Below, one piece after another: positions 7,442 to 23,132 of a stretch of 24,000 nucleotides of DNA (the stretch's first letter is position 1; every line of letters starts with the position of its first letter). The stretch is from Magnetospira sp. QH-2. Its GTDB lineage: Bacteria; Pseudomonadota; Alphaproteobacteria; Rhodospirillales; Magnetospiraceae. The translations under genes were made by a program, and so were the position numbers. The DNA is taken from contig NZ_FO538765.1 of assembly GCF_000968135.1 (NCBI RefSeq), positions 859,819 to 883,818 on the forward strand, written 5' to 3'. The notes beneath the pieces are model-generated. The model was not told where the DNA came from and made no database searches. It saw nothing but the letters and a program-made list of their open reading frames with translations.

Positions 7442-7458
7442 GTGTTTTTGACAGGCTG

Positions 7459-7704
7459 CTTCTGTAATCGAGTCATTTGAGTCAAGCTGATTTCCAAGCC
7501 GTCGGTTTGAACCTGGGGTATGTGGCGCCCTTTGCTTCTGTCCGCGGTCGACGTCGTCGCCGCATGATGGGGATCAAGGGGGATCGGGTGCAGCAATCTG
7601 AAAAGCGTGGTCTTACGCCACTGCAGCCTGCGCGCTGTCATCCGAGCCCCGCGCGTCGCCACGCGTCCTGGCCGCCCTTCAGGCGATCTCGGTTTTCGTT
7701 GTGT
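7459..7704 (-). ncRNA. Candidate bridge/seek guide RNA in the IS 3' non-coding tail (copy A)
   Basis: Mirror of 22232-22477. It has the same guide-like segments and hairpins (target-loop region about 7596-7630, donor-loop region about 7533-7572). One SNP relative to copy B (7518) lies outside those segments. Confidence 0.45.
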
Positions 7705-8736
7705 TTAGATGGCGGTCTCCTCCTTGCGGTACTGGAAGTCCGTGCCGTCGATCCACATGCGATGCATGATTACGGCGAGACGCCGGGCAACGGCGACCTT
7801 GGCGCGTTTCATCCCGCGCCTTTTGGCGACCGCGAGCCCCCAGTGTTTGAGCCAGGACCAACGGCGGGTTCGAGTGAGAAGTGCATTGGCGGCCTCGAAC
7901 AAAAGCCAACGAACCATGGCATCTCCGCACTTGCTGATGGGGCCGCTTCGGTCCTGCTCTCCCGAGGCGTATCTGCGTGGGACAAGCCCGAAGTGGGCGC
8001 CGACCATGACCGACTTTTGAAACCGTTCCGGCACGTCGAGTCCTGTCCTGAAAGCGAGGGCGGTAACCGGGCCGACGCCGGGAACGGTCATCAGGCGCCG
8101 GCAAACGCTATCATCGCGCGCAGCGGCATGAACCTGCCGGTCGAGCTTGTCGAGTTGTTCGAGCAAGGCTTGGCGCGCAAGCAAGAGCGGCTCGGCGGCT
8201 GCGCTGAGGTGCGGGTTATCAGCCGTCAATTCCCGAACCCGCGCCGCGAAAAGGCGTCCGCGCGCCATACCGACCTTGAGGCCGAAAGCTTTCAATGTTC
8301 CTCGTACCGTATTGGACAACTGACGGACCTGATGAACCAGGGTCTCCCGATGGGTCAGCACCATCCGGAGCTCCTGACTGCGCGCGGTCTTGACGTGGGT
8401 CGCGCGGTACAAACCGGTCCGCATCGCCTGGCTGATCAAGCGGGCGTCGCGACGGTCCGTCTTGACTGGGCTGGCGCTGGCAAAGGCCTTCATTTGCCGG
8501 GTCTCGATACAAATCACAGGGAGGCCCCGACTGGACAGTCCTGCGTACAGCCAAGGCGCCAGAGGGCCAGCTTCCAACCCAATTCGCGCAAAGCCACGCC
8601 CGCTTTCCTCGAGCCAAGTGGCGACCGCCTCGGGTGTGCTTGACACCTTGCCTTCGCGAATGACGGTTCCCTTTGCATCAATCTCACAGATCGAAATGCT
8701 TGCCATCGATACGTCCATTCCAACAAAATACTCCAT
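7705..8736 (-). CDS. IS110-family DEDD transposase/recombinase
   Basis: N-terminal RuvC-like DEDD region (MEYFVGMDVS..., GLEAGP, KTDRRDA). C-terminal Transposase_20-type region (MTVPGVGPVTALAF, PRRYASGEQDRSGPISKCGD). Start taken at the ATG with AGGAG upstream (MEYFVG) rather than the track TTG at 8787. Confidence 0.93.
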   Translation of the reverse strand: MEYFVGMDVSMASISICEIDAKGTVIREGKVSSTPEAVATWLEESGRGFARIGLEAGPLAPWLYAGLSSRGLPVICIETRQMKAFASASPVKTDRRDARLISQAMRTGLYRATHVKTARSQELRMVLTHRETLVHQVRQLSNTVRGTLKAFGLKVGMARGRLFAARVRELTADNPHLSAAAEPLLLARQALLEQLDKLDRQVHAAARDDSVCRRLMTVPGVGPVTALAFRTGLDVPERFQKSVMVGAHFGLVPRRYASGEQDRSGPISKCGDAMVRWLLFEAANALLTRTRRWSWLKHWGLAVAKRRGMKRAKVAVARRLAVIMHRMWIDGTDFQYRKEETAI

Positions 8737-8847
8737 AGCTGGTCTCCTCTGTTCCATGTCCAGGAATTGACCCGGATACTTGATCAAGACCGAGTGTGGA
8801 GACCAGCTGACTGTTTAGGCAATCCCTGACTGCTCGATTACCGCCAT

Positions 8848-9020
8848 CTGAAAAAGTCCGATTTCGAGCCTGTGCCAACACATGCCTCGACAAGCTCAGC
8901 ATGAGGGCCTTTGAATTCTCAACAGGTTAGCCTCATCCTGAGCTTCCTCATCCCGAGCTTGTCGAGGGACGAAGGGCGAGGCGGGCCGTCGGACAACACT
9001 TTTTCAGCAGCCTGCTAAGG
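8848..9020. repeat. MITE/REP-like palindromic repeat element E1
   Basis: 10-bp terminal inverted repeats ctgaaaaagt (8848-8857) and actttttcag (8998-9007), plus a long internal inverted repeat (cgacaagctcag / ctgagcttgtcg). Largely collinear with E2, with scattered substitutions. Relative to E2 it carries a tandem 15-bp duplication (8931-8945 / 8946-8960) and a 7-nt insertion. Confidence 0.85.
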
Positions 9021-9026
9021 ACGCGG

Positions 9027-10886
9027 CTATTTCTTGACCTGGGTGGGATCGTCGTATCCGACATAGGGCCAGCTTTTCAGCCGCTCCCACGTCCCATCCG
9101 GGCGTCGTTCCAGAAGATGGGAAGACCGATCCGGTAGCGGGGTTCGGAAATACCTCTCAACCACCGCGTTGACCGAATGGATCCAGGCATGGCTGGGGGC
9201 GACCTTGTTCAGGTAGGGGACCATGTCCTCGTGATTATTGAACAGGTTCCAGCGCGCGACTTCGATGCCCACCGGATAAATATAGTAGCGCATCTGGAGC
9301 GGCATCTCACCCGTGCCCGTCGGGTCGATCAAGGCAATACGACTGCCGTCGGGGAGCATCTGGCGTAATTCGCCGCCCACCTCCCGGACATGTTGCTTCA
9401 CCGGGTGGCGGTCGAAGCGGACCTTGTTGACGAGGATCACGGGCAACAAGACCATCAGCGCGACAGCCAATCCGTTGGCCCAGCCTGGCAGGGCCGATCC
9501 CAGTCGCTTCTTGTAGAGCAGCGCCAGGCCATAGACGGCCGCGGCCCACATCAAACCGCCCAGATGGGTATTGTAGCGCCAATAGGAGGCAGCCCTTTCC
9601 GCTTCGCCGCCACCGAACACGGCGATGTAGGCGGTAATCAGGAACAGATTGTAGCCCAAGAAGACAAGGCCCGCGATCATGGCCAGGCTGTGAAAGGCGT
9701 CCCGGTAGCGCCAGAAGGCCTTGAAACCGAAGTAGACCATCACGAACATGCCACCGAAATAACCGACCTTTTGCGAAATGACCTTGGCCACCGACGCCAG
9801 GGTCAGAGGCAGAATATGAAACTGCCATTCATCGAAAGGCCGGACCTTCATGCTGGCAAACGCCAGGCCTTCGGTTTCCGTGTAACCTTTCCAGATCATG
9901 AATAGGGCCACGGCCGGGCCCAAAACCAGGATCATCAGGCGCAACAGCTCATGCAGACGGACCTGCGGATGCCGCCATCCCGCGATGCCAATGGCGATGG
10001 GCAGACACAAAAGGAGTGCCAGATTTCCCTGTTTGAGATTGGCCACCAGCAATAGGGCCAGGCCGCTCTGCAAGGCCAACGCGGCGGCGGTGCGGCGATT
10101 GCCTTCGGCCAGGGCCTCGATCATCAGCCATCCGAGAATACCGGCCATGGCGACCGCTGTGGTGGTGCCGACCTCGGCGTAGGCGGTAAAAACCAACTTG
10201 CGAACGAAGGTCGGGCTCAACAAGGTTGCCAACAGCAGCCCCAACCCCACAAGACCCCAACGACCGGCGACGGAACTCTTCGTATCCAGGCCCCGCTCGA
10301 TAAGACGCACCAGGGTCAGGCCGAACAGGAGGAGGGTGAGCGTATTAAAGATGGCGCCCCCGTTCTCGACGAAGAACCCGGTCAGCCGCGATGCCAAGTA
10401 GGTCACCAATGGCAGGGTATACGGGTAGGCGGGGAAACTGGCCGGATTGACCGGACGGTCGGCGGATGGCAGCCCATCCACTTCGAACAGATACTTGGCA
10501 CTCCAAAGCCACTGAGAAAACTCGTCCCATTGGGAGGGGACCATGGCGCTGACCAGCAGGATCAGAGGCAACCCGACCAGAACTAAGCGACCCAGATCCT
10601 TCGGGAAAAGCTGTCCATCCCGTCGCCAGGCCAGCCATCCAGCAACCATTGCCAAGCCGAACAGGAGGTAGGCGATCCAGCTAAAGGCCAAGGCGGGCAG
10701 ATAGATACCGCTTGTTGTGAACAACACCGTTACCACGGCCCACCCGGTCCATAAATCGGCCTCTTGGAATCGCGACCGGCCCCCAATCAGCGCGCCCATG
10801 GCCATCAACGCGGCCATGACCGCGCCCACGGCCGCCAAGCCAAGCAAGTTCTCGAAATCGGGGAGATAGGACAAGACGAGCGACAT
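9027..10886 (-). CDS. Large polytopic membrane protein, possibly a GT-C-fold glycosyltransferase-like enzyme, with a C-terminal soluble domain
   Basis: 619 aa with more than 12 predicted hydrophobic helices. An acidic DE in an early loop (SQWDEFSQW) resembles GT-C/ArnT/PMT-type enzymes. A good GGAGG SD precedes the ATG. The family assignment is not secure. Confidence 0.4.
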   Translation of the reverse strand: MSLVLSYLPDFENLLGLAAVGAVMAALMAMGALIGGRSRFQEADLWTGWAVVTVLFTTSGIYLPALAFSWIAYLLFGLAMVAGWLAWRRDGQLFPKDLGRLVLVGLPLILLVSAMVPSQWDEFSQWLWSAKYLFEVDGLPSADRPVNPASFPAYPYTLPLVTYLASRLTGFFVENGGAIFNTLTLLLFGLTLVRLIERGLDTKSSVAGRWGLVGLGLLLATLLSPTFVRKLVFTAYAEVGTTTAVAMAGILGWLMIEALAEGNRRTAAALALQSGLALLLVANLKQGNLALLLCLPIAIGIAGWRHPQVRLHELLRLMILVLGPAVALFMIWKGYTETEGLAFASMKVRPFDEWQFHILPLTLASVAKVISQKVGYFGGMFVMVYFGFKAFWRYRDAFHSLAMIAGLVFLGYNLFLITAYIAVFGGGEAERAASYWRYNTHLGGLMWAAAVYGLALLYKKRLGSALPGWANGLAVALMVLLPVILVNKVRFDRHPVKQHVREVGGELRQMLPDGSRIALIDPTGTGEMPLQMRYYIYPVGIEVARWNLFNNHEDMVPYLNKVAPSHAWIHSVNAVVERYFRTPLPDRSSHLLERRPDGTWERLKSWPYVGYDDPTQVKK

Positions 10887-10999
10887 GGTGCCTCCGGGGT
10901 GATCGCGGCGTGTTTAACATAGCTTCCACGCCTAACAAACCTTTGCCTTCGGCGTTCGCGGCATTACATTGAGCAGCAGCACATTCATGGAGAAGCCGA

Positions 11000-12499
11000 A
11001 TGAAGATCACTTTCGCCAAGCCAGCCCTGCCCGAAACCGGAACTCTGGTGGTGACCGCATTGGATGGCGGCAAACTGTCGCCCACTGCCCAGATCTTCGA
11101 CGAACGGACCGATGGGGCCCTTGGACGGGCGATCAAGACCGCGCGCTACAAAGGCAAAAAAGGCCAGGGGCTGAGCCTGTTGGCTCCGACAGGCACCGGT
11201 CTCGACCGGCTGTATGTGATCGGCTTGGGCAAGGCCAAGGACCTCAACGATCTGAAGATGCAGGATGTGGGGGGGACTCTGTATGCCTCGCTGGCCCATT
11301 GCGGGGCTTCGAGTGTCTCGGTGGCGCTGGATGATCTGGAGGACTGTGGGCTGTCCTTGGAAGATATGGCGGCCCATCTGGCATTCGGCGCGCGGTTGCG
11401 CACTTTCCGCTTCGACAAGTACCGCACCAAGGAAGAAAAAGGCGATAAGCCCAAGCTCAAGACTTTCAAGATTCACGGCGCGGCGGTGGCGGATGCCAAA
11501 GCGACCTTCGCCCCCCTGGACAAGATTGCCGACGGGGTGTTCCTGACCCGCACCCTGGCCTCGGAACCGGCCAACGTGCTGTATCCGGAAAGCTTTGCCA
11601 AGGAAGCCCAGAAGCTGAGCGACCTGGGCGTTAAGGTGAAGGTCTTGGGTGAAAAGGAGATGACTAAGCTGGGCATGGGCGCCCTGCTGGGCGTCGGCCA
11701 GGGCAGCATCCGGGAATCCAAGATGGTGACTTTGGAATGGAATGGCACCGGCGCAAAGAAATCCGGTGCGCCCATTGCCTTTGTCGGCAAGGGCGTCTGC
11801 TTCGATTCCGGCGGTATTTCCATCAAGCCTTCACCGGGCATGGAGGATATGAAATGGGACATGGGCGGCGCCGGCGTGGTGACCGGCCTGATGGCGGCAC
11901 TGGCCGGGCGCAAGGCCAAGGTCCATGCAGTAGGCGTCATCGGCTTGGTGGAAAACATGCCCTCGGGCGAGGCGCAGCGGCCCGGTGACGTGGTGACCTC
12001 CATGTCCGGTCAAACCATCGAAGTGATCAATACCGATGCCGAAGGGCGTCTGGTGCTGGCCGATGCCCTGCATTATTGCAACGAGACCTATCAGCCCAAG
12101 TTCATGATTGATCTGGCGACTCTGACCGGAGCCATCATCATCGGCCTGGGCGAGCATGTGGCGGGGACCTTCTCCAACGATGATGACCTGGCCGAGGCGG
12201 TGTCCGAAGCGGGCAAGGCGGTGGGCGAGGGGGTCTGGCGCCTGCCCATCGGCGAGGAATGGGATAAACAGATCAAGTCCGACATCGCGGACATGAGGAA
12301 TGTGGGCGGTCGCGCCGGAGGCAGCATCACCGCCGCGCAGTTCCTCAAGCGCTTCGTCGGGGATACTCCGTGGCTGCATATCGATATCGCCGGCGTGACT
12401 TGGTCGAAGAAAGACAAACCCACCGTGCCCAAAGGCGGCACCGGCTTCGGCGTGCGGCTGCTCGACCGGCTGGTGGCCGACAAGTATGAGAAGGACTGA
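11000..12499 (+). CDS. pepA: Leucyl aminopeptidase (M17 family)
   Basis: Motifs VGKGVCFDSGGISIKP and NTDAEGRLVLADAL, ~499 aa, followed by holC in the classical synteny. Confidence 0.95.
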   Translation: MKITFAKPALPETGTLVVTALDGGKLSPTAQIFDERTDGALGRAIKTARYKGKKGQGLSLLAPTGTGLDRLYVIGLGKAKDLNDLKMQDVGGTLYASLAHCGASSVSVALDDLEDCGLSLEDMAAHLAFGARLRTFRFDKYRTKEEKGDKPKLKTFKIHGAAVADAKATFAPLDKIADGVFLTRTLASEPANVLYPESFAKEAQKLSDLGVKVKVLGEKEMTKLGMGALLGVGQGSIRESKMVTLEWNGTGAKKSGAPIAFVGKGVCFDSGGISIKPSPGMEDMKWDMGGAGVVTGLMAALAGRKAKVHAVGVIGLVENMPSGEAQRPGDVVTSMSGQTIEVINTDAEGRLVLADALHYCNETYQPKFMIDLATLTGAIIIGLGEHVAGTFSNDDDLAEAVSEAGKAVGEGVWRLPIGEEWDKQIKSDIADMRNVGGRAGGSITAAQFLKRFVGDTPWLHIDIAGVTWSKKDKPTVPKGGTGFGVRLLDRLVADKYEKD

Positions 12500-12508
12500 T
12501 TCCCGCTC

Positions 12509-12958
12509 ATGGCCGAGGTCGCTTTCTACCACCTGATCGCCTGGCCGCTGGAACGGGCCTTGCCGAAATTGCTTGAGCGGACCGTGGAGTCCGGCAAGCG
12601 GGCGGTGGTAATCGCCGGGTCCGATGCCAGGGTGGAATCCCTGGATATGGTGCTCTGGACCTACGAGGCTGATTCCTGGCTGCCCCATGGCACCTCTCGC
12701 ATGGGACATCCGGCGAATCAGCCGGTATGGCTGACCATGCAGGATGAGAACCCCAACGGGGCGCAGTTTCTGTTCCTGACCGAAGGCATGACCTCGGATC
12801 GCCTGGCCGAATACGAGCGGTGTTTTGATCTGTTTGATGGCAATGATCCACAAGCCGTGCAGGCGGCGCGGGAGCGTTGGACAGCCTGCAAGGCCGCCGG
12901 TCACGATCTCGCCTATTGGCGGCAGACAGATCAAGGACGGTGGGAGCGGCAAGCCTAA
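12509..12958 (+). CDS. holC: DNA polymerase III chi subunit
   Basis: 149 aa, N-terminus MAEVAFYHL..., located immediately downstream of pepA in the conserved pepA-holC arrangement. Confidence 0.85.
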   Translation: MAEVAFYHLIAWPLERALPKLLERTVESGKRAVVIAGSDARVESLDMVLWTYEADSWLPHGTSRMGHPANQPVWLTMQDENPNGAQFLFLTEGMTSDRLAEYERCFDLFDGNDPQAVQAARERWTACKAAGHDLAYWRQTDQGRWERQA

Positions 12959-13102
12959 TCCGCGACGATCAATAACAATAATTCCACCAAGGACTTCAAA
13001 CCGATCAAATTTCGGTCTAAACTCCCGCTCGATGGGTTGTGACACGCCTGTGTGTTTGCGACCTTTCGGATTGGAATTGGACTGAGGTAGGTCAAGGACC
13101 CT

Positions 13103-13873
13103 ATGGATCTCGCAACAATTGTCGGCCTTGTCGCCGGGTTTGCACTGATTGTCGTCGCCATCTTGTTGGGCGGCGACCTGATGTCCTTTGTCAACGTCCC
13201 CAGTTTGATGATCGTGGTCGGCGGCACCATCGCCTCCGTGCTGATCCGCTATACCCTCAAGGACGTGGGCGTGGTCCTGAAGACCGCCATGGGTATCGGC
13301 TTCAATATGTCCAAGACCGATGCCCTGGACCTGGTTCAAAAGTCCCTGGAAATGGCCGAACTGGTCCGAAAAAACGGTCTGCTAGCCTTGGAAAGCCTGG
13401 AGATCGAGAACGATTTTTTCAAGCGCGGCATCCGGCTCTGCACCGATGGCCATAACCTGGACGTGATCAAGGAAACCATCGACAAGGAAGTGAACCTGAC
13501 CATCTCCCGGCAGGAAGCCGGCGAGGCCATGCTGCGCGGTATCGGTGATTCCGCTCCGGCCTTCGGCATGATCGGAACCCTGGTCGGTCTGGTGCAGATG
13601 CTGTCCAATATGGATGACCCGAAAACCATCGGCCCCGCCATGGCGATCGCCATGCTGACAACCTTCTATGGTGCCGTGCTGGCCAACGTGTTCGCCATCC
13701 CGTTGGCGGACAAGATTGCTGTCAAGAATGATCAGGACCGCAAGAATCACGAGTTGATCGTGCAAAGCATCATTCAAATTCATGGCAACCAGAGCCCCAT
13801 GGCCTTGAAGGAAATCCTCGCCGTTTACCTGCCGCTCAATAAGCGAGCCGCGCTGGCCGACGACGACGAATAG
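13103..13873 (+). CDS. motA: Flagellar stator protein A (MotA/PomA family, PomA-like)
   Basis: 256 aa. The N-terminus MDLATIVGLVAGFALIVVAILLGG closely resembles PomA. The C-terminal TM pair contains PAFGMIGTLVGLV and TTFYGAVLAN. Confidence 0.88.
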   Translation: MDLATIVGLVAGFALIVVAILLGGDLMSFVNVPSLMIVVGGTIASVLIRYTLKDVGVVLKTAMGIGFNMSKTDALDLVQKSLEMAELVRKNGLLALESLEIENDFFKRGIRLCTDGHNLDVIKETIDKEVNLTISRQEAGEAMLRGIGDSAPAFGMIGTLVGLVQMLSNMDDPKTIGPAMAIAMLTTFYGAVLANVFAIPLADKIAVKNDQDRKNHELIVQSIIQIHGNQSPMALKEILAVYLPLNKRAALADDDE

Positions 13874-13891
13874 CGGGGGATCCAGGCACCC

Positions 13892-14719
13892 ATGGCCGAC
13901 GAAAAATGTAAATGTCCTGCCGGTGCTCCTCTGTGGATGGTCACGTTCGCCGACCTTATGTCCTTGCTGCTGACCCTGTTCGTGTTGCTGCTGACCTTCG
14001 CCGAAATGGAAGTGATCAAGTACAAGGCGGTTTCCGGATCGATCCGCAATGCCTTCGGAATCGCCAAGGAAGACAAGCTCAAAGGGGTGATTGAGCTTGA
14101 GGGCTCGAAGCGCCGTAAGGCCGCCACCAACCCCGATATTACCCGCGAGAAAAACACCAGCCCCGAGGTGGTGGTCGATATCAAGGAAGCCTTCAATCGC
14201 CACCAGGAGATGGCGCAGGAAGAAAAAGAAAAGATGGAGATGAAGCAGCTTGAAGATGCCATCAAGCAGGCCATCGCCAAGGAAATTGCCGGGTCCGGCA
14301 TGACCGTGGATGTCACCGGCGACGGTGTGGTGATCCGTTTCCCGTCCGAAATCGCCTTCCCGTCGGGCAGTGGGGATCTGTCCAACCAATTCCGCGAGAC
14401 CCTGGACAAACTGGGGGGCGTGCTGGCGGCAACCGAGGGCCAGATCGTCGTTTCCGGCCATACGGATAACGTGCCCTTGGGCGGCGGTGGTCAGTATCGC
14501 ACCAACTGGGATCTGTCGGCGGCCCGCGCGGCGTCGGTGGTTCATCACTTCATCGACGACGAGCGATTCGATGGCGACCGCTTCACCATCCAGGGCTTTG
14601 GAGAAAGCCGACCCATTGCGGCCAATGAATCCATGGAAGGCCGGGCCAAGAACCGTCGCGTGGAACTGTTGGTGGTGCGCAAATCCGAAAAGACCACGCT
14701 GGCGATCCCGGGTCAGTAG
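13892..14719 (+). CDS. motB: Flagellar stator protein B (MotB/PomB family) with an OmpA-like C-terminal domain
   Basis: N-terminal plug/TM segment with the conserved Asp (WMVTFADLMSLLLTLFVLL). OmpA-like C-terminus (SGHTDNVP, NWDLSAARAASV, NRRVELLV). Central Glu/Lys-rich linker. Confidence 0.88.
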   Translation: MADEKCKCPAGAPLWMVTFADLMSLLLTLFVLLLTFAEMEVIKYKAVSGSIRNAFGIAKEDKLKGVIELEGSKRRKAATNPDITREKNTSPEVVVDIKEAFNRHQEMAQEEKEKMEMKQLEDAIKQAIAKEIAGSGMTVDVTGDGVVIRFPSEIAFPSGSGDLSNQFRETLDKLGGVLAATEGQIVVSGHTDNVPLGGGGQYRTNWDLSAARAASVVHHFIDDERFDGDRFTIQGFGESRPIAANESMEGRAKNRRVELLVVRKSEKTTLAIPGQ

Positions 14720-15856
14720 TTACCGGTCCGCATCTTTCCGCCATAGGACGAGGATACAGACCATGCCAGCGGCCCCGGCCCCGGCCATGGCCAAATAGGC
14801 TTGCCCAGCCAGAGCGGTGTAGAGATACCCGGCGGCGAAAATGGCAACGCCGATTCCCAATCCCATGACACTGGCCGCATAGAGGCTTTGGGCCGTTGCC
14901 GATTGGGCGGCGGGAATGTGTTTGGCCAAATAGGTCATGGCGCCCAGGTGGGTGGCACCGTAGGTGAAGGCGTGGAAGGCCTGCACCACCACCAAGAGTG
15001 TCAGATCGTCCGTCAGACCCGTGACCGTCCAGCGGATCGTCGCCGCCAGCCCGCCCAGGATCATCAGCGGCACGGCCCCGAAGCGCGACAACAGTCGGGC
15101 ACCGAAAAAGAACAGGATGATTTCCGCGATGACCCCTTCCGCCCATAAGGCCCCGATCAGGCTTTCCCCATGGCCGACCGACTGCCAATGCAGGGTGCCA
15201 AACGCATAATAGACGCCGTGGCTGCCTTGAATCAGTGCCGCGCCCCCGCATAGCAGCATGAAGGGACCATTTTGCAGCAAGGTGCGCATTGGCGCATGGC
15301 CGGTTTCTGGCTTGGGGGTGCGGGTATCGGGCAGCGGCAGCGTGGTCAGCAATCCAAGGACCACGGCTCCAAAGATCAACCAATAGATCAGCGACGGGTC
15401 GCGGTTTTCCAGCACCTGTCCGGATATGACCGCAGCGGCAATGAACGCCAGGGATCCCCAGAGGCGAATTCGCCCATACTGAATGTCATTGTCATGAATG
15501 GTCAGCAGCGTAAGATTCTCGCACAGGGGCATCAAGGCCGACCAGGTGATCATGAATAATGTGCTGATGATCAGCAGGTGCCAGAATCCCCCGCCCCAGA
15601 GAAAGGCCAGGTAAATCCCGACGGAGAGAAGGGCCAGAATCCGCATCAGCTTGCGCCGTTCACCGCTGTGATCGGCGATTCCAGCGATCCAGGGACCAGT
15701 CAGGACTTTGACCAGGATACTGGATGACATCACCAAGCCGATCTCGCCGGCCGTCAGACCCTGGGACTCCAGCCACACCGGCCAGAACGGCAGGTGCATG
15801 CCGATCATGGTGAAATAGCCCACGTAGAACAGGGACAGGCGCGGATAGAGATTCAT
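14720..15856 (-). CDS. MFS transporter (MFS_1_like / HcaT-like subgroup)
   Basis: 12-TM-type hydrophobic profile. The N-terminus MNLYPRLSLFYVGYFTMIGMHLPFWPVWL is typical of this subgroup. Start taken at ATG 15856. The track ORF extension to 16093 is Pro/Arg-rich and overlaps the divergent kinase gene. Confidence 0.8.
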   Translation of the reverse strand: MNLYPRLSLFYVGYFTMIGMHLPFWPVWLESQGLTAGEIGLVMSSSILVKVLTGPWIAGIADHSGERRKLMRILALLSVGIYLAFLWGGGFWHLLIISTLFMITWSALMPLCENLTLLTIHDNDIQYGRIRLWGSLAFIAAAVISGQVLENRDPSLIYWLIFGAVVLGLLTTLPLPDTRTPKPETGHAPMRTLLQNGPFMLLCGGAALIQGSHGVYYAFGTLHWQSVGHGESLIGALWAEGVIAEIILFFFGARLLSRFGAVPLMILGGLAATIRWTVTGLTDDLTLLVVVQAFHAFTYGATHLGAMTYLAKHIPAAQSATAQSLYAASVMGLGIGVAIFAAGYLYTALAGQAYLAMAGAGAAGMVCILVLWRKDADR

Positions 15857-15945
15857 GTCTTCCCATACCCGATCTCTTCCCTTCAGGTACAGCCCGGAAA
15901 CGAATGTGCTAGATAAGCGATCGGGCAAACGGGGGAATCGGAGCG

Positions 15946-16776
15946 ATGGATCCCATATTGGTGGTTGGGTCGGTGGCCGTGGATGAGGTGGTGAGGTTAC
16001 AGGCCCCCCTGCGTATCGGTAGTCACAACGCCGGAATGGATGCGGGCGCGCGGATCGGCGGCGGCGCGGCCAATACCGCCATGGCCCTGGCACGGGCCGG
16101 AGATTCCGTGTCCGTGGTCAGTGCCGTGGGCGAGGATGAGGCGGGTGCTTTGCTGTTGGATCAGTTGGCGCGCCTGGGGGTGGATCTTGCCCTGGTCGAT
16201 CGGCATGCGGGGGAAACAACGCGCTCCTTGATCATGTTGGAGGAAGCCGGCGAGCGAACCATTGTCAATCGGGCCCGGGCTCCGGTGGCCTTGCCCGCTG
16301 ATTTGGCCTCCCGTCCGGCTTCGGCTTTCTATGTGCGTAGTGCCGATCCTTTGCTGACCGAGGTGATTCAAGAGCGCAGCAAAAGTTGCCCGGTGTTGGC
16401 TCATGTGCCGCCGATGACAGCGGACTTCCGACCGGCACAGGTGTTGGTGGCGTCGGAATCCGATCTGGACCCGGCATTTTTGCACGACCCATGGCAGGGG
16501 GGGCGTCGCATTGCCGGAGAGACCCTTGAATGGATGGTCTTGACCCGTGGCGAACGGGGGGCGGCGGCCTTTGATGGCAAACAAGTGATCGAAGTCGGCG
16601 CGCCCAATGTATCGGTAATTGACAGTACCGGCGCCGGTGATGTTTTCGCCGCCGGGCTGCTGCATGGGTTAGCGCGTGGTTATGCCATGGGCCAATGCCT
16701 GGAAACGGCAGTTTCGTGGGGCAGTGCTTCCGTGGGCTACGAAGGAACCATGCCGCCGCATACCTTTCCGGCATGA
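15946..16776 (+). CDS. PfkB-family carbohydrate/nucleoside kinase (ribokinase-like)
   Basis: N-terminus ILVVGSVAVDEV, GGGAANTAMALAR, and the C-terminal signature DSTGAGDVFAAGLLHGL. Confidence 0.85.
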   Translation: MDPILVVGSVAVDEVVRLQAPLRIGSHNAGMDAGARIGGGAANTAMALARAGDSVSVVSAVGEDEAGALLLDQLARLGVDLALVDRHAGETTRSLIMLEEAGERTIVNRARAPVALPADLASRPASAFYVRSADPLLTEVIQERSKSCPVLAHVPPMTADFRPAQVLVASESDLDPAFLHDPWQGGRRIAGETLEWMVLTRGERGAAAFDGKQVIEVGAPNVSVIDSTGAGDVFAAGLLHGLARGYAMGQCLETAVSWGSASVGYEGTMPPHTFPA

Positions 16777-16871
16777 TGGCAATAGAGTTTGAGAATCACT
16801 TTCACGGTTGAACTATACGAACTGGTAATATACAATATATCATTGCTAGTCGGTATGCTCCGAACTGGCTG

Positions 16872-17711
16872 TTGGAGTGCGTGCGTTTGCCATTCGTGGA
16901 TGTGAAGAAAATTCCCTCGACGGGCAATGAACTGATTGACGAAGGCCACCGTCATTTGGCCGAAGTCATCAATCAGGTCTATGAGGCTTGGCTGCGCAAC
17001 GACCCACATGACAAACTTTGTGATGGCATTGACGATATCACCAAGGCGTTGGAAGATCATTTTTCCACTGAAATCGCCGTGGTGCGGGCTGCCGGATTCA
17101 CCAAATGGCAGGACCATATGGTGGTCCACGACAAACTGCGGGCAAAGATCAAAAATAAGCTACAGGTGCTCAAGGAAACCTGTGACTTCAATGATGCCAG
17201 TATCGATCTGTTCGAAACTCTTGACGGCTTGATCTACGAGCATGAGATCCTAGACGATGGCGATTTCTGGGCTGTATTCGGGCCACAGGGCCAGCGTCCG
17301 AAACGTGAAACCGTGCTGACTTGGAAAGACGCCTACCAAGTCGATGTGCCGGAACTGGATCGCCAGCATCGGGCCTTATGCGAGATCCTCAATCAGATCC
17401 ATGAGGTTGCCATCTCTGAAGCCTTCGACAGGGATGGCGCCCGATCTTTGATCGAACAATTCCAGCGACAGGCTCGTCAGCATTTCATGGCCGAAGACAC
17501 TTATCTTCGCGATATGATGGGGGAAGCGGCGGAGAGCCATGCCCATGATCACGCGGATCTTTTAAGTGAATTGGAAACCCAGCTGGATGATCTGGATGAA
17601 GCCCTTGCCGGGGATTTGCCCAATTTTGTCGAAGGCTATCTGGCCCCCTGGCTGATGGATCATATGTGTGTTGGCGACCGCAAGGCGTTCGGTCTTACTC
17701 CGGCCCACTGA
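16872..17711 (+). CDS. Tandem hemerythrin-like metal-binding domain protein
   Basis: Two hemerythrin-type repeats: first LIDEGHRHL...HFSTE...HMVVHDKL; second LTWKDAYQVDVPELDRQHRAL...HFMAED...HAHDHADL. The start is uncertain (TTG 16872; alternative GTG/TTG codons at 16881-16902). Confidence 0.75.
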   Translation: MECVRLPFVDVKKIPSTGNELIDEGHRHLAEVINQVYEAWLRNDPHDKLCDGIDDITKALEDHFSTEIAVVRAAGFTKWQDHMVVHDKLRAKIKNKLQVLKETCDFNDASIDLFETLDGLIYEHEILDDGDFWAVFGPQGQRPKRETVLTWKDAYQVDVPELDRQHRALCEILNQIHEVAISEAFDRDGARSLIEQFQRQARQHFMAEDTYLRDMMGEAAESHAHDHADLLSELETQLDDLDEALAGDLPNFVEGYLAPWLMDHMCVGDRKAFGLTPAH

Positions 17712-17715
17712 ACGA

Positions 17716-19608
17716 TCAGCCTGATTCCGCCTTCAAGATCGCCGTTTCCAATTCTTCGTGCGCCGTGAACCAGGCCTCCTCCGTTTCGTTCAGCGCCTTG
17801 TCTGTTTCCCCCAATTGCCGCTGCAACTCGGTGAGTGGTCCGCTGGGGCCGTCATAGAGTTTGGGGTCGGCAAGGCGCTGTTCCAGGATCGATTTATCCT
17901 GGTGTAGCTTGTCGAGCTTCATTTCCGCATTCTTCACCTGCTTGCGAAGCGGCGCCAATTTGGCGCGGGCCTCGGCGGCGGCGCGCCGATCATCCTTGCG
18001 GCTGGGACCATCGCGGCGACGGGTTTCCCTGCGGGCTGTGCGTTGCTGGTCCAACAGATAGCGGCGATAGTCATCCACATCCCCGTCAAAGGGCGTACAG
18101 GCCCCATTTTCCACCAGCCAAAGGCGGTCACAGGCGGCGGCCAGCAAGTGTGGGTCATGACTGACCAACACCACCGCGCCGTCATAGGTATTCAATGCCT
18201 GCAACAGGGCCTCGCGGGAGTCCACGTCCAGATGGTTGGTGGGCTCGTCGAGCAGCATCAGATGAGGTTTGTCGCGGCTCATTAGGGCAAACAGCAGCCG
18301 GGCCTTTTCACCACCGGAGAGACTGGCGACCGGCGTATCGGCCTGGTCGCCGGGGAATCCGAATCGGCCCAGATGACCGCGAACCCGGGCTTCCGGTTCC
18401 ATGGGCATCAAACGCGCCATGTGGAGGTAAGGCGAATCGGTGAGAATCAGTTCGTCGGTCTGGTGCTGGGCGAAATAGCCCACCTTCAGCTTATTGGATT
18501 TCCGCAGCTTGCCGTCCAGCGGTTTCAGACGGTCGGCAAGCAGCTTCATCAGTGTCGATTTGCCATTGCCGTTGGCGCCCAGCAATCCGATCCGGTCATC
18601 CATGTCGATGCGCAGATCCAGGTTGCGCAAAATCGGTTTGGATGCGGGGTCATAGCCCACGGTGGCCGCTTCCATGGCCACCAGCGGCGGCGACAAAGGG
18701 TCGGGGTCCGGAAAATCGAACGTGATGGTCCGCGATTCGACGGCGGTGGCGATGGGCTCCATTCGGGCCAGCATTTTCAATCGGCTTTGTGCCTGGCGGG
18801 CCTTGGTGGCCTGGGCACGGAAGCGATCGACAAAGGCCTGGATTCGGCGCCGTTCATCCATTTGGCGGGTGCGCAGGGCGGCCTGTTGGGCTTGGCGCTC
18901 CCGGCGGGTGGTTTCGTAGTAGTCGTAATTGCCCTGGTAACGAATCAACTTGCCTTCGTCCAAGTGGACGATTTCCTGCACCACGCTGTTGAGCAGGCTG
19001 CGTTCATGGCTGATCACCAACAAGGTCCCCGGCCAGGAGGCCAGATAGGATTCCAGCCAAAGAGTGGCTTCCAGATCCAAATGGTTGGTGGGTTCATCAA
19101 GCAGCAGCAAGTCCGGGCGGGCGAAAAGTGAGGCCGCGAGGCTCACGCGCATGCGCCAACCCCCGGAATATTCCTTGCAAGGGCGGGCCTGGGCATCGTC
19201 GTCGAATCCAAGGCCGGCCAGGATAGAGGCCGCCCGCGACTCCGCCGAATGGGCATCAATGTCAGCCAGGCGATTGTGAATCTCGGCGATTCGCTGAGGA
19301 TCGGTGGCGGTTTCCGATTCGGCGAGCAGGGCCGCGCGCTCCGAATCGGCTGCAAGGACCGTATCGAGCAGATTGGTGTCACCGGATGGCGCCTCTTGGG
19401 CCACATAGCCGACTCTGGCGCGGGGGCGGATGCTGATGGATCCGGCATCCGGCGTGCGTTCTTGGGCGATCAGGCCGAACAGAGTGGATTTGCCACTGCC
19501 GTTGCGGCCCACCAGTCCAACCTTGTGGCCGTCGGGTATGGCAAGAGTCGCCTGTTCAAACAACAGGCGTCCGGCGATGCGAAAGGTGAGATCATTGATA
19601 TGCAACAT
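17716..19608 (-). CDS. ABC-F family ATPase (two ABC domains, no TM domain, C-terminal coiled coil)
   Basis: Two Walker A motifs (GRNGSGKST, GANGNGKST), two LSGG signatures (YSGGWRMR, LSGGEKAR) and two Walker B motifs (LLLLDEPTNHLD, LMLLDEPTNHLD). 630 aa. Confidence 0.92.
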   Translation of the reverse strand: MLHINDLTFRIAGRLLFEQATLAIPDGHKVGLVGRNGSGKSTLFGLIAQERTPDAGSISIRPRARVGYVAQEAPSGDTNLLDTVLAADSERAALLAESETATDPQRIAEIHNRLADIDAHSAESRAASILAGLGFDDDAQARPCKEYSGGWRMRVSLAASLFARPDLLLLDEPTNHLDLEATLWLESYLASWPGTLLVISHERSLLNSVVQEIVHLDEGKLIRYQGNYDYYETTRRERQAQQAALRTRQMDERRRIQAFVDRFRAQATKARQAQSRLKMLARMEPIATAVESRTITFDFPDPDPLSPPLVAMEAATVGYDPASKPILRNLDLRIDMDDRIGLLGANGNGKSTLMKLLADRLKPLDGKLRKSNKLKVGYFAQHQTDELILTDSPYLHMARLMPMEPEARVRGHLGRFGFPGDQADTPVASLSGGEKARLLFALMSRDKPHLMLLDEPTNHLDVDSREALLQALNTYDGAVVLVSHDPHLLAAACDRLWLVENGACTPFDGDVDDYRRYLLDQQRTARRETRRRDGPSRKDDRRAAAEARAKLAPLRKQVKNAEMKLDKLHQDKSILEQRLADPKLYDGPSGPLTELQRQLGETDKALNETEEAWFTAHEELETAILKAESG

Positions 19609-19640
19609 GGCGACGCAGACTTAGCACGCCGATTCGATCC

Positions 19641-19681
19641 ACCACAAACGAAAGACGCCGCCCCCAATCAGGAGCGGCGCC
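19641..19681 (-). terminator. Candidate intrinsic terminator of the Gly/Tyr-rich protein gene
   Basis: GC hairpin pairing cgccgc (19656-19661) with gcggcg (19674-19679). On the minus strand it is followed by the T-rich tctttcgtttg. Confidence 0.45.
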
Positions 19682-19708
19682 TTCGCATAGAAATCTGAAA
19701 AACTCAGA

Positions 19709-20089
19709 TTACTTGGCCGGAGCGGCCGGAGCAGCCGGAGCGACCGGAGCAACCGGAGCACCATACGGAGCGCCATAAGGCATGCCGTAAGGGGCCGGGT
19801 AGCCATAGCCGTACGGAGCGCCATAGCCGTAGCCATTGTAGCCGTTGTAGCCATTGTAGCCGCTACCGTTACCATAAGCGTTGCCCGAACCACGGCCGGA
19901 GAAGCTCATGTTGAAGGAGCCGTCGCCGAAGCCGTCGCCCCAACCATTGCCGTTGCCCCAACCATTGTTGTTGCCCCAGCCATTGTTGTTCCAGGGACCA
20001 CCGCCCCACCAGGCGCTGGCGGAAGTGGCGGAAAGAGCGGCAGTGGCCAGAACACCGGCAACTGCGAGGGTCTTAAGGATGTTATTCAT
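19709..20089 (-). CDS. Small secreted Gly/Asn/Tyr/Trp/Pro low-complexity repeat protein
   Basis: Start at ATG 20089 (MNNILKTLAVAGVLATAALSATSASA, a signal-peptide-like sequence) with GGGGGA SD upstream. The mature part consists of WGNNNG, GYN/GYG, APYG and PAAP/PVAP repeats. Confidence 0.8.
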   Translation of the reverse strand: MNNILKTLAVAGVLATAALSATSASAWWGGGPWNNNGWGNNNGWGNGNGWGDGFGDGSFNMSFSGRGSGNAYGNGSGYNGYNGYNGYGYGAPYGYGYPAPYGMPYGAPYGAPVAPVAPAAPAAPAK

Positions 20090-20465
20090 GACAATCCCCC
20101 GATTGTTTAAAGTTTCCCACAAAACTTAGGTACAGGGCCGGTGCTCGACCAAAAACCTTGATACCTAGCGATCTATTAAGAGCGACTTGAGATGCTCTAT
20201 ATAAGCACCACCTAATTTAGTGATACCTAATATTAATGTCAACGACTTTTTTTCGCCGAGTTCGCCAAGGTGTGTGGAGAAGTTGGAAATATGAGTGTGA
20301 ATCAGGCGGAAATCAAGATTTCCCGGGAGATGTCGTCACGCGTGGGTTGCCTCTAACGGATGAAGCGGATATAAGGCGCGGGCCTTGCGGGGCGTAGAGC
20401 CGAATGGCTCGGTTCCCGGGCCCGGCTTTTAAGAATCGCACATGTTTACCGAAAGGTTTTACGTC

Positions 20466-20888
20466 ATGGCTATTGAGCGCACGCTGTCGATCATCAAACC
20501 CGATGCTACGGCGCGGAATATCACCGGCAAGATCAATGCCGTCTTTGAGGATAATGGCCTGCGGGTCGTGGCTCAGAAGCGGTTGTGGCTGAGCAAGAAG
20601 CAGGCGGAACAGTTCTATGCCGTCCATGCGGAGCGCTCGTTCTTTGGCGAGTTGACCGACTATATGGTCTCTGGGCCCGTCGTGGTTCAGGTGTTGGAAG
20701 GCGAAAGCGCCATCACCAAGAATCGCGAAGTCATGGGCGCCACCAATCCCGCCAATGCCGATGAGGGCACCATCCGCGCCCTGTTCGGGCAGAATGTGCA
20801 GGAAAACTCGGTGCACGGTTCCGACTCGCCGGAAAACGCGGCCATCGAGATCAGCTTCTTCTTTGCCCAGACGGAAATCGTCGGCTAA
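20466..20888 (+). CDS. ndk: Nucleoside diphosphate kinase
   Basis: [14 protein letters not shown]..., with the active-site NSVHGSDS and ~140 aa. Start at ATG 20466 rather than track 20442. Confidence 0.97.
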
Positions 20889-20911
20889 AGCTGAAATCAG
20901 GTATCGAGGAA

Positions 20912-20936
20912 GGGGGCGCTTGCGTCCCCTTTTTTT
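20912..20936 (+). terminator. Rho-independent terminator of ndk
   Basis: Stem gggggcg (20912-20918) pairs with cgtcccc (20923-20929), including one G.U pair. The loop is cttg, followed by a T7 run (20930-20936). Confidence 0.7.
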
Positions 20937-20942
20937 CGTTTA

Positions 20943-21088
20943 ACGGTCTGCTGAAAAAGTCCGATTTCGAGCCTGTGGTGACACATGCTTCGACAAGCTC
21001 AGCATGAGGGCCTTTGAACTTTCAACATGTTAGCCTCACCCTGAGCTTGTCGAAGGGCGAGGCGGGCCGTCGGACAATACTTTTTCAG
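20943..21088. repeat. MITE/REP-like palindromic repeat element E2
   Basis: Same family and orientation as E1. TIRs are ctgaaaaagt (20951-20960) and actttttcag (21079-21088). A perfect 14-bp internal inverted repeat pairs ttcgacaagctcag (20989-21002) with ctgagcttgtcgaa (21041-21054). Confidence 0.85.
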
Positions 21089-21199
21089 ATGGCGGTAATC
21101 GAGCAGTCAGGGATTGCCTAGACAGTCAGCTGGTCTCCACACTCGGTCTTGATCAAGTATCCGGGTCAATTCCTGGACATGGAACAGAGGAGACCAGCT

Positions 21200-22231
21200 A
21201 TGGAGTATTTTGTTGGAATGGACGTATCGATGGCAAGCATTTCGATCTGTGAGATTGATGCAAAGGGAACCGTCATTCGCGAAGGCAAGGTGTCAAGCAC
21301 ACCCGAGGCGGTCGCCACTTGGCTCGAGGAAAGCGGGCGTGGCTTTGCGCGAATTGGGTTGGAAGCTGGCCCTCTGGCGCCTTGGCTGTACGCAGGACTG
21401 TCCAGTCGGGGCCTCCCTGTGATTTGTATCGAGACCCGGCAAATGAAGGCCTTTGCCAGCGCCAGCCCAGTCAAGACGGACCGTCGCGACGCCCGCTTGA
21501 TCAGCCAGGCGATGCGGACCGGTTTGTACCGCGCGACCCACGTCAAGACCGCGCGCAGTCAGGAGCTCCGGATGGTGCTGACCCATCGGGAGACCCTGGT
21601 TCATCAGGTCCGTCAGTTGTCCAATACGGTACGAGGAACATTGAAAGCTTTCGGCCTCAAGGTCGGTATGGCGCGCGGACGCCTTTTCGCGGCGCGGGTT
21701 CGGGAATTGACGGCTGATAACCCGCACCTCAGCGCAGCCGCCGAGCCGCTCTTGCTTGCGCGCCAAGCCTTGCTCGAACAACTCGACAAGCTCGACCGGC
21801 AGGTTCATGCCGCTGCGCGCGATGATAGCGTTTGCCGGCGCCTGATGACCGTTCCCGGCGTCGGCCCGGTTACCGCCCTCGCTTTCAGGACAGGACTCGA
21901 CGTGCCGGAACGGTTTCAAAAGTCGGTCATGGTCGGCGCCCACTTCGGGCTTGTCCCACGCAGATACGCCTCGGGAGAGCAGGACCGAAGCGGCCCCATC
22001 AGCAAGTGCGGAGATGCCATGGTTCGTTGGCTTTTGTTCGAGGCCGCCAATGCACTTCTCACTCGAACCCGCCGTTGGTCCTGGCTCAAACACTGGGGGC
22101 TCGCGGTCGCCAAAAGGCGCGGGATGAAACGCGCCAAGGTAGCCGTTGCCCGGCGTCTCGCCGTAATCATGCATCGCATGTGGATCGACGGCACGGACTT
22201 CCAGTACCGCAAGGAGGAGACCGCCATCTAA
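21200..22231 (+). CDS. IS110-family DEDD transposase/recombinase
   Basis: Protein identical to copy A, with one synonymous difference at 22141. AGGAG SD precedes ATG 21200. Confidence 0.93.
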   Translation: MEYFVGMDVSMASISICEIDAKGTVIREGKVSSTPEAVATWLEESGRGFARIGLEAGPLAPWLYAGLSSRGLPVICIETRQMKAFASASPVKTDRRDARLISQAMRTGLYRATHVKTARSQELRMVLTHRETLVHQVRQLSNTVRGTLKAFGLKVGMARGRLFAARVRELTADNPHLSAAAEPLLLARQALLEQLDKLDRQVHAAARDDSVCRRLMTVPGVGPVTALAFRTGLDVPERFQKSVMVGAHFGLVPRRYASGEQDRSGPISKCGDAMVRWLLFEAANALLTRTRRWSWLKHWGLAVAKRRGMKRAKVAVARRLAVIMHRMWIDGTDFQYRKEETAI

Positions 22232-22477
22232 ACACAACGAAAACCGAGATCGCCTGAAGGGCGGCCAGGACGCGTGGCGACGCGCGGGGCTCGGATGACA
22301 GCGCGCAGGCTGCAGTGGCGTAAGACCACGCTTTTCAGATTGCTGCACCCGATCCCCCTTGATCCCCATCATGCGGCGACGACGTCGACCGCGGACAGAA
22401 GCAAAGGGCGCCACATAACCCAGGTTCAAACCGACGGCTTGGAAATCAGCTTGACTCAAATGACTCGATTACAGAAG
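22232..22477 (+). ncRNA. Candidate bridge/seek guide RNA in the IS 3' non-coding tail (copy B)
   Basis: caggctgc (22306-22313) is the reverse complement of gcagcctg at the right junction (22477-22484). ttttcagat (22332-22340) is identical to the left junction (21082-21090). acagaagca (22395-22403) is identical to the IS right end (22471-22479). ccccatc (22364-22370) matches 6/7 to the reverse complement of the IS left end gatggcg (21088-21094). Each pair of segments flanks a small hairpin. Confidence 0.5.
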
Positions 22478-22484
22478 CAGCCTG

Positions 22485-23132
22485 TTAGGGGGCGGGGTTG
22501 ACCAAGGCGCCGGTCGCACCGGGGCCTTCGATAATCACTTGTTCGTTTTCCACCCGGGCCCGGCCTTCGGCGATCAGCCGCAGAGCCAGAGGATATATCC
22601 GGTGTTCCTGTTCCAGCACACGAGCGCCCAACGCCGATTCGTCGTCATTACCCAGTACCGGCACCGCGGCCTGCACGAGAATCGGCCCGGAATCCATGGC
22701 CGGGCGTACATAATGGACCGTGCAGCCGCTGAGCCGCACCCCCGCGGCCAGGGCGTCCCGATGGGCATGGGCCCCTTTGAACGAGGGCAGCAGGGATGGG
22801 TGGATGTTGATCAACCGGTCATGCCAGCGATTGACGAATCCGTCCGTCAGCAACCGCATGAATCCGGCCAGGCAGACGAATTCCACCCCATGCGCCGTCA
22901 GGGTTTCATGCACCGCTTCTTCGAAAGGCGCGCGTCCGTCATAGGCTTTGTTGTCAACCATGGCGGTGGCCACGCCGGCCTTCGTGGCCCGCTCCAGAGC
23001 GAATGCCCCGGGAACGTTGGACAGAACCAGGGCGATCTCCGCCGGAAAGGCGGGATCGGCGGCGGAATCCAGCAAGGCCTGCAAATTGCTGCCCCGTCCA
23101 GAGACCAGGACTCCAACCTTCAGCCGCGCCAT
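22485..23132 (-). CDS. purN: Phosphoribosylglycinamide formyltransferase
   Basis: [29 protein letters not shown] and GCTVHYV motifs, 215 aa. It overlaps the purM stop, in the classical purMN arrangement. Confidence 0.95.

Follow-up and report, generated by a model that had tools for sequence, protein, structure and literature searches.

IS621, an insertion sequence (IS) of the IS110 subgroup, has a target of the repetitive extragenic palindrome (REP) type, and the Tn21-family repeat targeted by IS4321 and IS5075 is 38 bp long, with insertion reportedly at one fixed position and in one orientation. IS4321 and IS5075 belong to the IS1111 family and are cited as targeting Tn21-family terminal repeats in passages of PMC11187229 and PMC11208160. 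In Coxiella burnetii, 20 of 21 copies of IS1111 are associated with a miniature inverted-repeat transposable element (MITE), QMITE2 (PMC5896051). Here, we describe an IS present twice in a window of 24,000 nt (the whole stretch of DNA analysed) from Magnetospira sp. QH-2 (contig NZ_FO538765.1, positions 859,819 to 883,818), which inserts at a single site within the terminal repeat of a MITE. We consider it, with a probability of about 90%, to be an RNA-guided IS of the IS1111 subgroup that is programmed for this site.

A close parallel is the IS1111/QMITE2 association, where an IS1111-type element likewise has its preferred target inside a MITE and leaves a few MITE bases on one side (PMC5896051). 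However, that target is a GTAG REP palindrome within QMITE2 and not a terminal repeat (PMC5896051), and MITE, target and IS all differ in sequence from those described here. For IS4321 and IS5075, the citing passages name a Tn21-family transposon as the host element, as opposed to a MITE of ~160 bp. ISPpu9 and ISPpu10 of Pseudomonas putida are also IS110-family elements with multiple copies in a repetitive extragenic element of their host, but they target REP palindromes instead of a transposon end and reach a lower copy number (7; PMC12288879).

Junctions of the IS within the MITE terminal repeat

The window contains an inverted repeat of 1407 nt that pairs 7451-8857 with 21079-22485 and whose arms differ at 3 positions (99.78% identity, BLAST). 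IS copy A with its flanks (7451-8857) is thus the reverse complement of copy B with its flanks. The ends of the IS were set by comparing occupied MITE ends with the unoccupied MITE ends of the window (8998-9015 and the reverse complement of 20943-20960):

21089-22477 (+): IS copy B, 1389 bp; ends from occupied versus empty sites and common to the complete genome copies
7459-8847 (-): IS copy A, 1389 bp; 3 mismatches to copy B
21087-21088, second copy at 22476-22477 (+): core dinucleotide AG; sole sequence repeated at both junctions, common to target and donor
20943-21088: inner part of MITE B, the final 8 bp of which (cagcctgt) are found on the far side of copy B, at 22478-22485
8848-9015: inner part of MITE A, which has its first 8 bp on the far side of copy A, at 7451-7458

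Copy B follows actttttcag (21079-21088), runs from atggcgg to tacagaag (21089-22477) and is followed by cagcctgt (22478-22485). The two empty ends read actttttcag then cagcctgc (8998-9015) and actttttcag then cagaccgt (reverse complement of 20943-20960). With a slash marking the insertion point, the left junction is CTTTTTCAG/ATGGCGG, the right junction ACAGAAG/CAGCCTG and the empty site CTTTTTCAG/CAGCCTG. Exactly AG is common to the left flank (..TTCAG) and the right end of the IS (..AGAAG), while nothing is shared between the left end of the IS (ATGG) and the right flank (CAGC). If the shared AG is counted to the left instead, copy B spans 21087-22475. The free right end of MITE A (8999-9015) is a perfect empty target, CTTTTTCAG/CAGCCTG. 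MITE B is flanked by TA at 20941-42 and 22486-87, and a degenerate empty site is found at its free left end (20943-20960). The MITE bodies at 8848-8945 and 20951-21048 are direct repeats (92%). Because the two MITEs have the same orientation, with copy A in a left end and copy B in a right end, the IS copies are inverted relative to each other, just as the preliminary description had explained them.

We then surveyed the genome, consisting of a 4.02-Mb chromosome and a 31-kb second contig, and found 44 complete and 4 partial IS copies (three right ends that lack a normal left end, and a single fragment of the left end). Identity is 99.4-100% for most copies and 98% for one. Both flanks could be assessed in 43 copies. 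In every one of these, (A/G)CTTTTTCAG stands before the IS and CAGCCTG(T/C) after it, and the 14-mer across the site is perfect in 41; the retained flank of the partial copies agrees with these junctions. The IS is therefore site-specific genome-wide: none of the assessable copies lies in an unrelated context, and such sharing of junctions is far beyond chance. Its orientation is fixed as well, with all 47-48 insertion events at one position and in one orientation relative to the MITE repeat, the same IS end facing the MITE interior. Only AG is repeated at the junctions of the 43 copies, and there is no other target duplication. Further out than ~10 nt, two kinds of left flank occur, ...GCTCGAAATCGGA (26 copies) and ...GGCCGTAGGACAAC (17 copies), which are the two ends of the MITE and have the repeat alone in common. 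A further 107 MITE ends in the genome are uninterrupted and lack the IS.

These results bear out most of what the preliminary description had read from the window. It had proposed the same target for both copies, actttttcag before and cagcctgt after (all quoted strings and coordinates were correct), and an uninterrupted site, ctttttc-AG-cagcctg, deduced from the empty ends and now seen at 107 ends. The AG core that it had suggested is the only sequence common to the left flank and the right IS end, and the predicted target guides described below overlap there. Its placement of the insertion in the MITE terminal repeat also stands, but the repeat is longer than the 10 bp it had assumed.

The MITE is a small, non-coding, multi-copy element with terminal inverted repeats, represented by ~83 bodies and ~150 ends. 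No autonomous partner of the MITE emerged from the analysis. From tip to tip (CAGGCTG...CAGCCTG), intact copies are 152 or 174 bp long, or 154 or 176 bp with one more base per side, and TA is found on both sides, one base beyond the tips, in 15 of 29 intact copies. A 4-bp YTAR duplication was considered for the MITE and rejected, since it fits 5 of the 29 copies as compared with 15 for TA at offset 1. The terminal repeat extends over ~17-18 bp (ACAGGCTGCTGAAAAAGT), with cagcctgY as its outermost 8 bp, followed by TA. As the repeat runs 8 bp past the insertion point, the IS lies inside it and not at its edge, and splitting the repeat 8 bp from the tip should disable that MITE end. The central palindrome of the MITE is present in other genomes of the order, while neither the terminal repeat nor the IS was found in 30 relatives searched.

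Several copies deviate from the common form. Those at C1:2813182-2814570 and 2845490-2846851 end in ...ACAGAAG+AAG before CAGCCTG; because both carry a private single-nucleotide polymorphism (SNP; G at IS position 1149), they form a small sub-lineage with a right end longer by 3 nt. In the copy at C1:1819060-1820447, whose left flank is CTTTTTTCGA, the left end diverges strongly (~24 differences between IS positions 13 and 86), the remainder being almost normal. CTAG at IS positions 30-33 (window 21118-21121, where it is intact) is a secondary insertion hotspot. A CTAG-flanked, MITE-like element of 103 bp occupies it in five full IS copies and one left-end fragment (C1:257614-259105, 933977-935468, 995131-996617, 2104284-2105775, 3941258-3942749 and 172483-172516), and the same element adjoins the outer YTAG of several MITE ends. 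An IS5-family element of ~853 bp (DUF4096 and DDE_Tnp_1, two overlapping open reading frames (ORFs)) is inserted at the same CTAG in four copies (C1:2720013-2722254, 2865805-2868046, 3630867-3633108 and 2845490-2846851), one of which has lost the IS left end. It occurs there in both orientations, so at least two independent insertion events took place.

Transposase family and predicted guide RNA

The preliminary description had seen a resemblance to IS110-family recombination, on which Pfam, NCBIfam and PDB matches of the transposase agree; the element can be placed more exactly in the IS1111 subgroup of that family. Features of the element are:

21200-22231 (+): transposase gene (tnp), 343 amino acids (aa), with a DEDD RuvC-like domain and Transposase_20 (Pfam)
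21095-21103 (+): left subterminal inverted repeat GTAATCGAG, 6 nt from the left tip; same layout in relatives
22464-22472 (+): its right partner CTCGATTAC, 5 nt from the right tip
22451-22456 (+): TTGACT, a -35-like hexamer read from the sequence

The transposase matches PF01548 (2.3e-22) in its N-terminal and PF02371 (6e-19) in its C-terminal part, NCBIfam NF033542 'IS110 family RNA-guided transposase' (249 bits; cut-off 140) and, in the PDB, ISCro4 (7e-14) and IS621 (9e-11). It contains GLVPRRYASG, an instance of the motif GL-P----S/TG given for IS1111-type enzymes of 330-350 aa. The non-coding ends measure 111 nt on the 5' and 246 nt on the 3' side, and the location of the longer one downstream of tnp is the IS1111 layout. 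The subterminal repeat is perfect over 9 bp, with terminal extensions of 6 and 5 nt, or of 8 and 3 nt if AG is counted to the left. The nearest proteins found by similarity search are at most 64-68% identical to the transposase, and a DNA search of a plasmid database returned only pieces of at most ~77% identity, to which no named IS could be assigned. The element is therefore a new IS, which had no name before and falls within the IS1111 subgroup of the IS110 family.

In its minimum free energy (MFE) fold, the 3' tail forms two modules, each made up of stem, internal loop and hairpin, with the following predicted parts:

22288-22355 (+): predicted target-binding loop of a bridge RNA/seekRNA (MFE fold; stem covariation)
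22288-22303 with 22341-22355 (+): basal stem of the target loop
22306-22313 (+): target-loop 5' guide CAGGCUGC, complementary to the top strand of G/CAGCCTG
22315-22329 (+): inner hairpin of the target loop
22332-22338 (+): target-loop 3' guide UUUUCAG, then AU; identical to the top strand TTTTC-AG and hence pairing with the bottom strand
22364-22401 (+): predicted donor-binding loop (fold and covariation)
22364-22372 (+): donor-loop 5' strand CCCCAUCAU; its CCAUC is complementary to G+ATGG of core and left end
22372-22393 (+): donor-loop hairpin
22395-22401 (+): donor-loop 3' guide ACAGAAG, part of the 3' strand GGACAGAAGC and equal to the last 7 nt of the IS

The predicted guide segments CAGGCUGC and UUUUCAG thus match both strands of the target. 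The two target guides overlap at the AG core, and both 3' guides end in AG. Target matches of 8 nt and 7 nt occurred jointly in 1 of 5000 shuffles of the tail.

For comparison, we fetched 54 related loci, of which 16 yielded elements with defined ends; the 11 with distinct targets were kept for a test of guides against flanks. The stems were tested on an alignment of 13 tails, with partners slid by 1-3 columns and 500 shuffles as controls. The same two helices emerge from the alignment, with compensatory changes at 16 of 21 pairs. Paired cells amounted to 89.4%, as compared with 36-46% when the partners were slid, and none of the 500 shuffles reached the observed value, which makes this a conserved structured RNA sequence.

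The guides covary with the flanks and ends of the elements. Across the 11 ISs, the 5' guide matched its own right flank over 6-11 nt and foreign flanks over a mean of 5.1 nt, an own-flank advantage seen in 0 of 20000 permutations (p < 5e-5). Pairs of 5' guide and right flank in relatives include CCAACAUUCU with AATGTTGG, CAAUGGGUCC with GACCCATTG, CCGAUUUU with AAAATCGG, and UAUGAACAAUC with ATTGTTCATA. For the 3' guide and the left flank of the same elements, the permutation p was 0.0016. The donor 3' guide tracks the right-end sequence in relatives (ACAGAAG, AGAGAAG, AAAGAAG, AGCGAAG and AGAGAAC), also in one relative that has the core AC instead of AG. The donor 5' guide matches 6-8 nt in three relatives (L048, L024 and L002).

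Two further observations concern the guides. A 'handshake', in which the 3' guides reach 2 nt into the partner sequence (UUUUCAG-AU and ACAGAAG-CA), was not separable from conserved stem sequence, and we dropped it because AU and GCA/GCG are conserved in relatives whatever their flanks. In the related elements L007, L008, L010 (about 2740-2900) and L035 (about 2790-2830), the right-end tail is tandemly duplicated, with the DNA that encodes the donor 3' guide as the exact starting point of the duplication, as if this DNA had served as a pseudo right end.

In the order of its guides, the complement of the top strand lies 5' of the complement of the bottom strand, as reported for IS1111-type seekRNAs (PMC11187229). 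ISEc11, ISKpn4, ISPst6 and ISPa11 have this order in common with the IS described here, together with two matches that overlap in the target, a long non-coding region downstream of tnp, a transposase of 330-350 aa with the GL-P----SG motif, and natural re-targeting among relatives (PMC11187229). They differ in that the present IS, with its 9-bp subterminal repeat and 6/5 extensions, is predicted from its sequence throughout. IS621 likewise combines a DEDD recombinase with an RNA that has separate target and donor loops and a 2-nt core in donor and target (PMC11208160; PDB 8wt6), but its RNA precedes the gene, in the left end, its guides come in the opposite order and its core is CT rather than AG (PMC11208160). 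Only its C-terminal domain aligns significantly by sequence (E = 9e-11).

On this basis, a mechanism can be proposed in which the DEDD recombinase would excise the IS as a circle whose junction, ...ACAGA-AG-ATGGCGG... (...GATTACAGAAG/ATGGCGGTAATC...), would be the donor site. An RNA from the 3' non-coding tail (about 22240-22410) would bind the recombinase and bridge donor and target. In the target loop, CAGGCUGC would pair with the top strand of G+CAGCCTG and UUUUCAG with the bottom strand of TTTTC+AG, and the donor loop would read both IS ends in the same manner. Strand exchange at the common AG core would then insert the IS in one orientation and without duplication except for the core. The programmed 14-mer sits in both terminal repeats of the TA-flanked MITE, 8 bp inside each, and the ~80 copies of this MITE offer ~150 intergenic sites. 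We infer the circle, RNA expression and a junction promoter for this element, and take RNA-bridged synapsis and exchange at AG from the family (PMC11187229, PMC11208160). Circularisation would put TTGACT 17 nt upstream of GAAGAT, formed by the right and left ends, which suggests a junction promoter; TTGAC followed by 16-17 nt and GAAG/AT recurs in relatives.

Several points weigh against an RNA-guided IS1111-type element. The subterminal repeat of 9 bp is shorter than the 11-13 bp usual in this subgroup, and the extensions of 6/5 depart from the usual 7 and 3 bp (PMC11187229). The donor 5' guide matches only 5 contiguous nt in this IS, and both 5' guides have a mismatched A opposite the core A. 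The whole 246-nt tail folds no better than its shuffles (z = 0.26), so that structural support comes from covariation and not from energy. An Rfam search of 20850-22600 (E <= 10) found no bridge RNA family, only chance matches (microRNA-like, on the MITE hairpin). Finally, RNA, circle and transposition are predictions from sequence in this case. The same fold energy, Rfam result and sequence-based status of the guide RNA would suit protein-only target recognition by a classical site-specific recombinase, with the tail matches being incidental or target remnants carried in the IS. However, the guides change with the flanks in 11 related ISs while the stems are kept by compensatory changes, and the family mechanism has been shown experimentally for IS1111-type elements (PMC11187229) and IS621 (PMC11208160). 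We therefore regard protein-only recognition as very unlikely.

Site quality and occupancy of MITE ends

Site quality was scored as the 14-mer TTTTCAG/CAGCCTG at all MITE ends:

Perfect 14-mer ends: 41 occupied, 34 empty (41/75)
Imperfect 14-mer ends: 2 occupied, 73 empty (2/75)

Occupancy depended strongly on site quality (odds ratio 44, Fisher p = 1.8e-13). While ~55% of perfect sites are filled by the IS, only 2 of 55 ends with a single mismatch are. Positions -7 to +7 are conserved at 98-100% in occupied ends versus 80-99% in empty ends, and outside this range the two groups do not differ.

The near identity of the IS copies, and of the MITE copies over ~150 bp on the inner side of each insertion (88-100%), might point to a spread of the IS among MITEs by homologous recombination or gene conversion, with MITE sequence serving as homology arms. 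On the outer side, however, only 8 bp (CAGCCTGY) and TA are common and each locus is unique beyond, and the IS is found at either kind of MITE end, with no more than ~17 bp of inner flank common to the two. Homologous recombination would be insensitive to single mismatches, so the sharp dependence of occupancy on such mismatches in the guide-matched 14-mer also counts against it, and we consider this route highly improbable. A longer composite element of IS and MITE half that always moves as a unit, as the flanks common to the window copies (10 bp left, 8 bp right) could suggest, has next to no probability, because these flanks are found joined without the IS at the 107 uninterrupted ends, empty sites that exclude it, and because they contain MITE-copy-specific SNPs and, beyond 10 nt on the left, are of two unrelated kinds.

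Of 57 paired MITEs, 31 were singly occupied, 26 empty and none doubly occupied. Among the 16 MITEs with two competent ends, 14 were singly occupied and 2 empty, where 2.9 doubles were expected (P(0) = 0.004). The lack of double occupancy could be a form of target immunity or interference. Alternatively, a 1.4-kb palindrome with a spacer of ~140 bp may simply be unstable. We doubt that the IS acts as a hyperparasite on the MITE, following rules that go beyond a simple match of guide to target. Separately, natural re-programming seems to have aimed the guide at a repeat that, among the 30 relatives searched, is confined to this lineage.

Neighbouring genes and significance

The genes next to MITE B and copy B are both intact:

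22485-23132 (-): purN (formyltransferase), intact; stop codon at 22485-22487
20442-20888: ndk, intact; neighbour of MITE B and copy B

The preliminary description had copy B ending within 8 nt of the purN stop codon or overlapping it, with the ORF undisrupted. The ORF is indeed intact, but the IS proper does not reach the stop codon, from which its last base, 22477, is separated by 7 nt. The overlap is confined to the T at 22485, which is both the tip of the MITE and the final base of that codon. An ORF of 619 aa at 9027-10886 (-) adjoins MITE A and has no Pfam match at E <= 0.001. Between the two inverted IS copies (window 7451-22485) lie 12.2 kb of ordinary genes, a segment that homologous recombination between the copies could invert. 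For the annotation of this region, the inversion of the two IS copies is explained, and purN and ndk are undisrupted.

Since the predicted guide RNA matches the target site, the IS illustrates a known mechanism clearly, without being out of the ordinary. As this mechanism is already established for the family, the main value of the element lies in a clean natural data set: a single genome offers ~150 near-identical natural targets of known occupancy, from which mismatch tolerance at the 14 guide-matched positions can be read. It also provides a compact pair of IS1111-type recombinase and guide, along with 11 related elements aimed at other sequences. While the behaviour is known, this IS and its target are new.

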